Program-made: the position numbers and the translations under genes | Shown here: positions 3,118 through 5,346 of the stretch, piece after piece | Position numbering within the stretch: the stretch's first letter is position 1 | How the letters are laid out: every line of letters begins with the position of its first letter | The notes under the pieces: model-generated | Seen by the model: only the letters and a program-made list of their open reading frames with translations | Databases searched by the model: none | What the model was told of the DNA's origin: nothing | Assembly: GCA_965248915.1 (NCBI GenBank) | Contig: OZ252216.1 | Location: 1,507,001 to 1,571,000 of the forward strand | DNA from: Alphaproteobacteria bacterium | Lineage (GTDB): Bacteria > Pseudomonadota > Alphaproteobacteria > M2410 | Length of the DNA: 64,000 nucleotides | Direction of reading: 5' to 3'

Positions 3118-5346
3118 TTGGCAAATGTGTTCTTGAGCTATGCGAGCGAAGATCGCGATCAAATTCGCGACCTCGTTGCGTTTCTTGAAGATGCAGGTCT
3201 TTCAGTTTGGTGGGACAATCGGCTATTGGGTGGGTCAATGTTCTCTACTGAAATCGAGAATGAGTTGACCCAGTCGGAAGCTGTGATCGTCGTATGGTCA
3301 CGACATTCAGCAACCTCCCGATGGGTCGCGGACGAAGCCGAACTCGCTCTTCGATTGGGAAAGCTAGTTCCCATCCAAATAGATCAAACTGAACCGCCTC
3401 TCGGATTTCGACAAATCCAAACTATCGATCTCTCACAATGGCAAAACGACGCCGATGATCCAATTTTCATCACCCTTCTGGCGTCACTTCGCGCCAAATT
3501 GACGAATGTGCCAGCGTCAATCCATCGCTCCGCCACCGCTCGAACCAAAGCCCCGAAGTACTCCATTGCTGTCCTACCCTTCGTAAATATGTCGGCAGAT
3601 CCCGATCAGGAATACTTTTCTGACGGAATCTCAGAAGAGCTCCTAAATTTGCTCGCCAAAGTAACTCAAATGAAGGTCACAGCACGAGGATCAACATTTC
3701 AGTTCAAAGGTAGAGAACAAGACGTAAAGAGAGTCGGTAGCCTATTGAATGTCGCGCATGTGTTAGAGGGTAGCGTTCGCAAGGCAGGTAACCGCGTACG
3801 AATAACCGCTCAGCTCATTGAGTCAGACACGGGCTATCACATTTGGTCTGAGACCTACGATCGAACATTGGAAGACATCTTTGAAATTCAAGATGAAATC
3901 TCAGCCGCCATTGTACATGAGCTAAAGGAACGAATACTCGACGCTACCGAAATTGACTCACCGAAATCCAACCGAAGTGCAAATGTCGACGCCTATGAAC
4001 ACTTCCTACTCGGTCAACAACTACTCAACACAAGAACCAAGTCTTCAATTGAACGTGGATTGAGCGAGTTCGAAAAGTCACTGACCTTCGATCCCGATTA
4101 CCTTCCGTCACTCGTCGGTCTCGCTGAATGTCACTTGCTGCTGAGCAAGCACATTACCAGCTATGGATCGACGTCAATCAAGGAAGCGCAAGCAAAAGCT
4201 TGGCCACTTCTTCAACTGGCAGGCAAAATCGAATCCAAGAATGCCGATGTTTATTCCGCTCAAGCTCTTTATGCACTCATTGGCGATGACCTAAAGAACG
4301 CCAAAGAACTTTCCGAAAGAGCAATAGCGATAAACTCCAATAGCGCCGCCGCACATCGCATATTGGGATTTGCCTTAGCGGGATTAAGTGGTTCGACACA
4401 TCAAATTATTCCAACTCTGCAGAAGGCTCTTGAAGTAGATCCCCTGTCCTTGTCGACACTCATTTCCCTTGCGAATGAATACAAGTATCGCGGACGCTTC
4501 GCCGAAGCAGAAGCTTTGAGGCAGCGTTGTCTTGTAATCAATCCGATTTGGCCCGGCGTACTCAATGGCATGGCCAGCGATGCCTACACACGAGGCAGTC
4601 TGAAGATTGCCCTGTCCGTCTTCACCGATCATGAATCACTGCTCACCTCACCTGTTGGCTTGGCAAATATTCAACTCATTCTTACGCGGCTAGGGTTTGG
4701 TCAAGAAGTCGAATATCTCGAGGAGTACATCGCGCTCACGCTCTACTCCATTTATGGCTTTGAAGACGATGCAAATCGATTGGGCAAACGACTCACCGAC
4801 TCGCTACCTGCTGACACTGACTATGAAACAGCACTGACATTTGTGGACTGGTATTCGCGGATCGGTAAAAACAAAGAAGCTCTTGCCCTTCTGGCTCCAT
4901 TCGTAATCGACACGGACCCTTTGCAGGGGCTACTCTTTAGCCCCGACAGCGACTATTACGGCGCCATGTACATGTACCACCTAAGTTTGGAGTTGGGCGA
5001 CGTCGAGACAACAAAGGTCTACTTGGAAAATCTTCGGATTATTCATAAGGATCTTATTTCTGATCCCAACGGCATCTCCATTCGAGCTTTCATGATCGGC
5101 GCCTTGATTGCATTGGCAGATGGTGACATCGAGGTCTGTTGCGATCAAATCGAACAAGAGTTCGAACGAAACAAATCTGATACGGCATTTGAATATTCGC
5201 CATTCTTTGAACGCATCGCCGACTATCCGCGCTTCAAGGATCTCGTGGGGTGGGCCCGCAAAAATCTTCAAGCTGAGATTTCAACCGCCAAGCAAGACGG
5301 ATTGCTGCCTCCATCAAAGGAACTGCTTCAAGCCATCAAAGAATAA
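3118..5346 (+). CDS. TIR domain protein with a cyclase-associated middle domain and C-terminal TPR repeats
   Basis: N-terminus [29 protein letters not shown]...[22 protein letters not shown] matches the bacterial TIR_2 fold, including the WxxxE glutamate position. The middle segment [30 protein letters not shown]...[34 protein letters not shown] matches the region that follows the cyclase domain in TPR-containing adenylate cyclases. The C-terminal ~450 aa are helical, TPR-like repeats. Confidence 0.8.
   Translation: [742 protein letters not shown]
5219..5343. repeat. Copy A of an imperfect direct repeat; it is the true 3' end of the TIR-TPR gene
   Basis: About 85% identical to 7196..7320 by eye (gactatccgcgcttcaagga...agacggattgctgcctcc...). 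Confidence 0.8.

Follow-up and report, generated by a model that had tools for sequence, protein, structure and literature searches.

A soluble TIR protein with a CadC-like sensor and a TPR solenoid in an alphaproteobacterial insert: a candidate self-contained receptor-TIR

What could a TIR domain do on a receptor-like protein that has no partner gene beside it? The question is raised by a gene of an alphaproteobacterium of lineage M2410 (assembly GCA_965248915.1). The stretch analysed, called the window, comprises 64,000 nucleotides (64 kb) at positions 1,507,001 to 1,571,000 of contig OZ252216.1. The gene, here called the TIR gene, stands alone in a lineage-specific insert between pccA and pccB and encodes a TIR domain, a linker, a CadC-like sensor and a TPR solenoid in one polypeptide (Table 1). 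A first-pass annotation, made from the sequence letters, had already recognised a TIR domain followed by a cyclase-associated middle region and a TPR array. The product is tentatively read here as a self-contained cytoplasmic receptor-TIR, in which self-association driven by the sensor would turn on NAD+ cleavage by the TIR domain (probability about 0.45).

The N-terminal domain matches Pfam TIR_2 (PF13676) over residues 4–112 (88.6 bits against a cut-off of 28, E=5.9e-25). It is predicted to adopt the flavodoxin-like TIR fold, and the modelled domain superposes on solved TIR domains, in agreement with the first-pass assignment. A search of PDB sequences pairs SRWVADE with SKQWPARE of Brucella BtpA/TcpB and with SRWCLDE of grapevine RPV1/RUN1. 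The aligned glutamates of these two proteins are the catalytic residues of the established literature, and E73 is therefore at the catalytic-glutamate position of the W-x-x-x-E motif, where a glutamate had been noticed from the letters. Tryptophan and glutamate of the motif are invariant in a 30-member alignment of the family and are found in 72–73 of 78 non-identical TIR domains of relatives (those whose alignment reaches the motif). Matches to PADLOC profiles are at the level of the TIR domain only: Aga_TIR of SPARTA (5.9e-12), SAVED_TIR (1.3e-11) and ThsB (8.7e-6). These closest profiles of the defence library represent NADases switched on by assembly, which supports the receptor-TIR reading; the closest TIR profiles and structures together include proven NADases. 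The TIR domain is a probable NAD-cleaving enzyme.

An AlphaFold2 model built from the 30-member alignment (mean predicted local distance difference test score, pLDDT, 87.7; predicted template modelling score, pTM, 0.75) divides the protein into a TIR domain (model residues 1–126), a disordered linker (128–139, pLDDT <50), an alpha/beta subdomain (approximately 143–272) and approximately 25 helices reaching to the C-terminus. The linker has a peak 19-residue hydropathy of 1.06, against 2.3–2.9 in siblings that bear a transmembrane (TM) helix. The protein is without TM helix and without signal peptide, and this TM-less form is presumably cytoplasmic. No P-loop nucleoside triphosphatase (NTPase; NB-ARC, NACHT or AAA) is found between TIR domain and repeats, either by profile or in the model. 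Pfam TPR profiles match over residues ~295–510, consistent with the TPR array proposed earlier. Residues 162–448 weakly match the C-terminal parts of CadC and HilA in NCBIfam, and the modelled alpha/beta subdomain and helices have the CadC-type sensor fold. Proteins with this alpha/beta subdomain are labelled 'TolB-like' by the Joint Genome Institute (JGI).

The middle region had been taken for the module that follows class III cyclase domains, the cyclase being replaced here by a TIR domain. That identity holds, in so far as the module is shared with PF00211 proteins and rhizobial cyclases, and the Guanylate_cyc (PF00211) catalytic domain is absent from the TIR protein in Pfam scans; the association with cyclases is not exclusive. 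Class III cyclases and Ser/Thr kinases carry the module downstream of a TM helix, frequently as tandem copies, and bare membrane anchors carry it as well. In rhizobial replicons it is present in genes annotated as cyclases and as proteins with a winged helix-turn-helix (wHTH) and TPR, in up to 15 places per record. The cyclases CyaD1, CyaD2 and CyaK of S. meliloti were considered as carriers and rejected; they are CHASE2 cyclases. With residues 1–275 as phmmer query, a search of 1.84 billion cluster representatives yielded 12,699 matches at E<=1e-30. Among the best 150 matches, 139 were new representatives: 25 with TIR domain and module but no TM helix, 51 with a TM helix and 63 with the module only. 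Within the same 150, the TM-bearing form of the TIR fusion is thus about twice as common as the TM-less one, and the family of TIR domain plus module comprises at least 76 clusters at 50% identity. The module is found fused to three or more TIR subtypes, of which 'GYFRLEWKLAVDRS' is without the canonical glutamate. The receptor-TIR family is large and apparently unstudied.

Some module-only proteins hold up to seven modules. Giant proteins (P0294 of 2837 residues, P0295, P0296) carry 5–7 tandem copies of the alpha/beta 'AVLPF...YFSDG' subdomain. Although >12,000 cluster representatives contain this subdomain (E<=1e-30), no Pfam scan run here placed it in a family. Tandem arrays of three to four paralogous TIR-TM-module genes of the glutamate-lacking subtype occur at L042 2271–12460 and L025 6148–13976; in three related metagenome-assembled genomes (MAGs), such arrays are accompanied by conserved genes for small proteins of secreted or outer-membrane-like type.

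The family of the TIR protein proper consists of approximately 37 full-length homologs with 37–45% identity from marine Alphaproteobacteria, the few named ones being Alphaproteobacteria MAGs. They are annotated as 'TIR domain-containing protein' or, by JGI, as 'adenylate cyclase' or 'TolB-like protein'. The linker is without TM helix in all of them (37/37): the segment from 'GFRQ' to 'AVLPF' is 43–56 residues long with a peak hydropathy of <=1.06, whereas in the siblings P0085, P0089, P0100 and P0108 it is 84–119 residues long and contains a clear TM helix. Mean pairwise identity within the family is 75% in the alpha/beta subdomain (the highest in the protein), 53% in the TIR domain and 30–38% in the helical regions. 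Conservation of TIR domain and alpha/beta subdomain together with a variable TPR part is therefore a receptor-like pattern.

No gene that could complete a known TIR pathway accompanies this receptor. SIR2, SLOG, Macro, STING, SAVED, SLATT and other known TIR partners are absent from the window, as the first-pass annotation had stated of the surroundings of the gene. A hidden Markov model built from the SLATT proteins of relatives has no match in the window either, and no SLATT, SLOG, Macro, SAVED or STING gene is found near any TM-less family member. The neighbouring DUF4282 protein was considered as a SLATT-like effector and rejected: the hhalign probability is 0.25%, and no DUF4282 gene is present at the other family loci tested. 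No partner gene is conserved across nine family contexts.

TM-bearing relatives differ in this respect. Neighbours at 33 TIR-module loci were clustered all against all, and two recurrent ones were obtained, both exclusively beside TM-bearing proteins of the same TIR subtype as that of the window. The first (five loci) is a SLOG-like/SLATT membrane protein with two SLATT domains (NCBIfam SLATT_1, 45.7 bits against a cut-off of 41), which is not recognised by PADLOC. Its N-terminus is Rossmannoid and resembles SLOG or nucleoside 2-deoxyribosyltransferases by motifs and by weak matches below significance (Pfam YAcAr, E=0.024; nucleoside 2-deoxyribosyltransferase in the PDB, E=0.013). The second (six loci) is a secreted trypsin-like S1 peptidase with LTAAHC and GDSGGP motifs and a signal peptide. 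In three loci the TIR, SLATT and S1 genes are all adjacent. Of the cultured strains, Novosphingobium sp. RL4 has the SLATT neighbour and N. aquiterrae the S1 peptidase neighbour. Both are absent from the window and from the surroundings of every TM-less family member. As an analogy only, the layout of extracytoplasmic protease, membrane receptor and cytoplasmic TIR domain recalls the insect Toll pathway.

This linkage bears on a different output, in which the TIR domain would generate a messenger, such as a cyclic ADP-ribose isomer or an ADP-ribose conjugate, for an unlinked receptor or effector, in an immune or a non-immune setting. Several receptor-TIR paralogs could then feed one pathway, as multiple receptor cyclases feed cAMP signalling. 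The TIR domain takes the same position on the module as cyclase and kinase domains, paralogs are several per genome and often close by (L001 has four in 22 kb, L042 a tandem array of four), and the five SLATT-linked loci belong to the same subtype. Such a signal generator is nevertheless somewhat unlikely, given the lack of a candidate receptor gene in the window or near TM-less members and a SLOG-like assignment that stays below significance thresholds. A broader form of the idea is doubtful: the TIR protein would be the soluble branch of a large bacterial receptor-TIR superfamily with mostly periplasmic sensors and cytoplasmic TIR domains (the topology of Toll-like receptors), to which some lineages would have added a secreted serine peptidase and a SLOG-like/SLATT effector. 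Nucleotides made by TIR domains would serve as a second messenger of general use, which evolution could exchange for cAMP/cGMP synthesis, phosphorylation or DNA binding and back again, and the protein studied here would feed an unlinked effector instead of being a suicide NADase.

In the preferred reading, a self-contained receptor-TIR, the CadC-like sensor and TPR solenoid would recognise a cue, either a ligand or a partner protein. The cue would change the self-association of the sensor module, and the flexibly tethered N-terminal TIR domains would be brought together in the cytoplasm, turning NAD+ cleavage on. NAD+ cleavage by TIR domains is switched on by TIR assembly. Class III cyclase, Ser/Thr kinase, wHTH and TIR outputs are all activated by dimerisation or oligomerisation, and CadC, the structural prototype of the sensor, works as a dimer; the assembly model is therefore the best supported. 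Consumption of NAD+, with formation of ADP-ribose-type products, may lead to growth arrest under stress or infection. It is the simplest output because no effector is linked. Further support for the reading comes from the paralogs in tandem or clustered arrays, the disordered TM-less linker, the lack of a conserved partner across nine family contexts and the anti-phage activity of the single-protein TIR-II system of E. coli (PMC11350192).

Several observations weigh against this reading. The DNA of the window belongs to the core chromosome (suf genes, RNase E, tyrS, a penicillin-binding protein, a release factor), with no defence island; its PADLOC matches are look-alikes of the SufS and DEAD-box helicase type. 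Family members elsewhere are located in unrelated housekeeping contexts, and no defence-island context was found around homologs. One lineage keeps the locus tRNA_bind / TIR / atp operon, with flanking proteins mostly 66–89% identical and the TIR protein 57.6% identical; such retention is more like that of a stable sensor than of a fast-turnover defence gene. No homolog is present in 50,697 phage records, and plasmid matches are rhizobial chromid cyclases. The module is normally periplasmic, and sensing in the cytoplasm is putative. The alpha/beta subdomain is conserved above the TIR domain. In a neighbour-joining tree of the module, computed without support values, TM-bearing TIR proteins are basal, cyclases and kinases lie outside, and TIR-less proteins with a two-TM anchor are nested inside the TM-less TIR family; the module can therefore function without a TIR domain.

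The last two points, together with the 40–43% identity of the module in the TIR-less anchored proteins and the occurrence of the glutamate-lacking subtype on the same module, would also suit a non-catalytic scaffold. The TIR domain would then be a homotypic or heterotypic interaction domain only, and the CadC-like/TPR module the functional part, for example as an adaptor that is membrane-anchored in siblings. This is improbable: tryptophan and glutamate of the catalytic motif do not vary in the family, and proven NADases are among the closest matches of the TIR domain.

As for the biological role of the receptor-TIR, an anti-phage function is plausible. The SLATT linkage in relatives and the precedent of TIR-II in E. 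coli (PMC11350192) point towards conflict systems. Ordinary signalling is suggested by the housekeeping contexts, by the retention of the locus between genomes and by the parallel to cyclases.

The TIR gene is complete and monocistronic and is the only gene on the forward strand of the insert. It is divergent from the DUF4282 gene (gap of 290 bp) and convergent with the gene of an S41-like peptidase (gap of 68 bp). A protein of the public collections, P0001, encoded on a 3.54-Mb contig, is identical, 739 residues long, and begins three codons later (GTG 3127, MFLSY). Homologs in the family alignment begin with the consensus 'MADIF.SY', and TTG 3118 gives 'MANVFLSY'; TTG 3118 is therefore the better start than the annotated GTG 3127. 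A scan for promoters and terminators gave matches at chance level.

The location of the gene is accessory and inserted. The nearest relatives, whose pccB is 86% identical, have the gene order AsmA-ATP12-pccB-pccA, in which pccB directly adjoins pccA or has a single small open reading frame (ORF) before it, against 6.2 kb here; insertion is therefore supported, as had been suspected from the letters. The insert contains orf263, the DUF4282 gene, the TIR gene, the S41 peptidase gene, a relic of the TIR gene and orf95. No tRNA gene is present in the first 12 kb. Integrases and transposases were found neither in Pfam scans of the insert nor among the listed families of the window. PHROGs matches of insert proteins are to families of unknown function only. 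The insert genes other than the TIR gene all encode envelope-type products, and none recurs near homologs.

The first-pass annotation had suggested the secreted S41 peptidase as a component of a common system. The two genes are adjacent and convergent, and a secreted peptidase gene is also conserved beside those of TM-bearing relatives, but there the peptidase belongs to the trypsin-like S1 family. A tblastn search with all insert proteins detected no homolog of the S41 peptidase, DUF4282 protein, orf263 or orf95 at 87 TIR-homolog loci, and no TIR gene lies beside S41 homologs in the contexts examined. The S41 family is small; its best matches are 50–56% identical, and the sole organism-named one is from Eudoraea (Flavobacteriaceae). 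With a G+C content of 0.46, the gene is probably a cross-phylum acquisition, to judge from these matches. The relic, which has a 1-nucleotide frameshift and its own TAG stop, is found 1975 bp beyond the live 3' end, abuts orf95 and, together with positions 5211–5346, brackets a 1975-bp segment holding the S41 gene. The TIR gene was therefore in place first, and the S41 gene, a later arrival, is no ancestral partner of it. The arrangement suggests that the segment was inserted by a recombination that brought a foreign copy of the end of the TIR gene. The peptidase has a signal peptide and the TIR protein has neither signal peptide nor TM helix; the two would be in different compartments. The S41 peptidase was accordingly rejected as partner, and a two-gene system is very improbable. 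DUF6090 genes lie close to a TIR paralog of one MAG (L005 16496–17257), and four copies surround the S41 homolog of Eudoraea (L096 709–9781); this co-occurrence is probably a coincidence.

Table 1. Coordinates of the insert, the TIR gene and its parts, and the recurrent neighbours of TM-bearing relatives. Positions are those of the window unless a locus (L) is named; aa, amino acids.
Feature	Position	Strand	Description
TIR gene	3118..5346	+	complete, 742 codons plus stop, TTG start, monocistronic
TIR domain	3118..3498	+	aa 1–127
E73 codon (GAA)	3334..3336	+	catalytic-position glutamate of W-x-x-x-E motif (SRWVADE)
Linker	3499..3552	+	aa 128–145; 18 aa, short, hydrophilic, predicted disordered, no TM helix
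Alpha/beta subdomain of CadC-like sensor	3553..3942	+	aa 146–275; 'AVLPFxNMSxDPxQEYFSDG' motif
Helical region	3943..5343	+	aa 276–742; CadC-like helical bundle running on into TPR solenoid
C-terminal helix and tail	5227..5343	+	conserved (..PRF..L...A..AGLLPxP..); common to TIR-less anchor proteins and TM-bearing relatives
Lineage-specific insert	1465..7696		6.2 kb between pccA and pccB; G+C 0.479 against 0.52 in window
pccA	start 1464	-	
orf263	1651-2442	-	probable lipoprotein, 263 aa, no family match
DUF4282 gene	2530-2826	-	membrane protein; also matches phage family of unknown function
S41-like peptidase gene	5415-7100	-	signal peptide, G+C 0.46
Relic of TIR-gene 3' end	7186..7326	+	~140 nucleotides, ~46 codons, 80–85% identical to 5211–5346
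orf95	7323-7610	-	95 aa, signal peptide
pccB	7697-9229	-	
SLOG-like/SLATT gene	L094 5852-7840	-	
SLOG-like/SLATT gene	L047 7839-9911	-	
SLOG-like/SLATT gene	L014 8387-9865	-	
SLOG-like/SLATT gene	L046 12650-14473	-	
SLOG-like/SLATT gene	L026 14828-16933	+	
S1 peptidase gene	L014 12268-13737	-	
S1 peptidase gene	L046 8802-9980	+	
S1 peptidase genes	L047 12165-14210	-	two genes
S1 peptidase gene	L064 12288-14015	+	
S1 peptidase gene	L084 5013-5411	-	

TIR enzymes have a central place in the immunity of bacteria, plants and animals, and the coupling of bacterial TIR domains to sensors is known for few systems. The component domains and proteins of TIR plus TPR type are known already; a TIR domain on a CadC-like ('TolB-like') module is apparently undescribed, and no paper on TIR with a CadC, TolB or COG5616 module was found in the searchable literature. 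The sensor module also plugs into cyclases, kinases and transcription factors, which argues that TIR chemistry is an ordinary signalling output. The family offers a defined, testable model in which assembly of TIR domains would be controlled by a CadC-like module, and the membrane-spanning form with candidate partners exists in cultured Novosphingobium sp. RL4 and N. aquiterrae.

The TIR protein is distinguished from known systems as follows. Thoeris is excluded: the ThsB match is at domain level only (E=8.7e-6), and neither the insert nor the rest of the 64 kb holds a SIR2, SLOG or Macro gene. It is not a STAND, Avs or TIR-NLR receptor; TIR domain, 18-residue linker, alpha/beta subdomain and helices follow each other without NTPase. 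It does not belong to the SLATT-linked nucleotide-signalling conflict systems, having no adjacent SLATT gene. With ThsB, TIR-SAVED, TIR-APAZ (SPARTA) and BtpA/AbTir it has in common a TIR domain with a glutamate at the catalytic position, these being its best PADLOC profile or PDB sequence matches. It differs from such assembly-activated TIR NADases in the absence of a ThsA, SAVED, prokaryotic Argonaute (pAgo) or coiled-coil partner or domain; the sensor is CadC-like/TPR instead.

CadC/ToxR-like receptors have the same CadC-type sensor fold. The TIR protein differs from them by a TIR output in place of wHTH, by the absence of a TM helix, so that its sensor is not periplasmic, by the lengthening of the helical part into a TPR solenoid of ~470 residues, and by an identity to CadC of ~11%. 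Proteins with class III cyclase, 'TolB-like' part and TPR have a homologous alpha/beta plus TPR module (33–38% identical over ~350–400 residues) and likewise occur as multiple paralogs per replicon; they carry a cyclase where the TIR domain sits, most have a TM helix before the module, and often two modules are in tandem.

TIR-II of E. coli is a single-protein TIR plus TPR system with proven anti-phage activity, for which the TIR catalytic residue is needed; approximately 30% of TIR-II systems also carry an ATPase (PMC11350192). Compared by description, the likeness is an N-terminal TIR domain and helical TPR in one polypeptide with no obligatory partner. The differences are that PMC11350192 mentions no CadC-like alpha/beta subdomain, and that the gene described here is without ATPase, is not in a defence island and belongs to a family without phage-borne members. 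The TIR-TM-CadC-like proteins of Novosphingobium sp. RL4, N. aquiterrae and several MAGs differ by a TM helix and conserved neighbours, neither of which is present in the TM-less family; TIR subtype (S.WV.DE ... PPLGFRQ) and sensor module are common to both.

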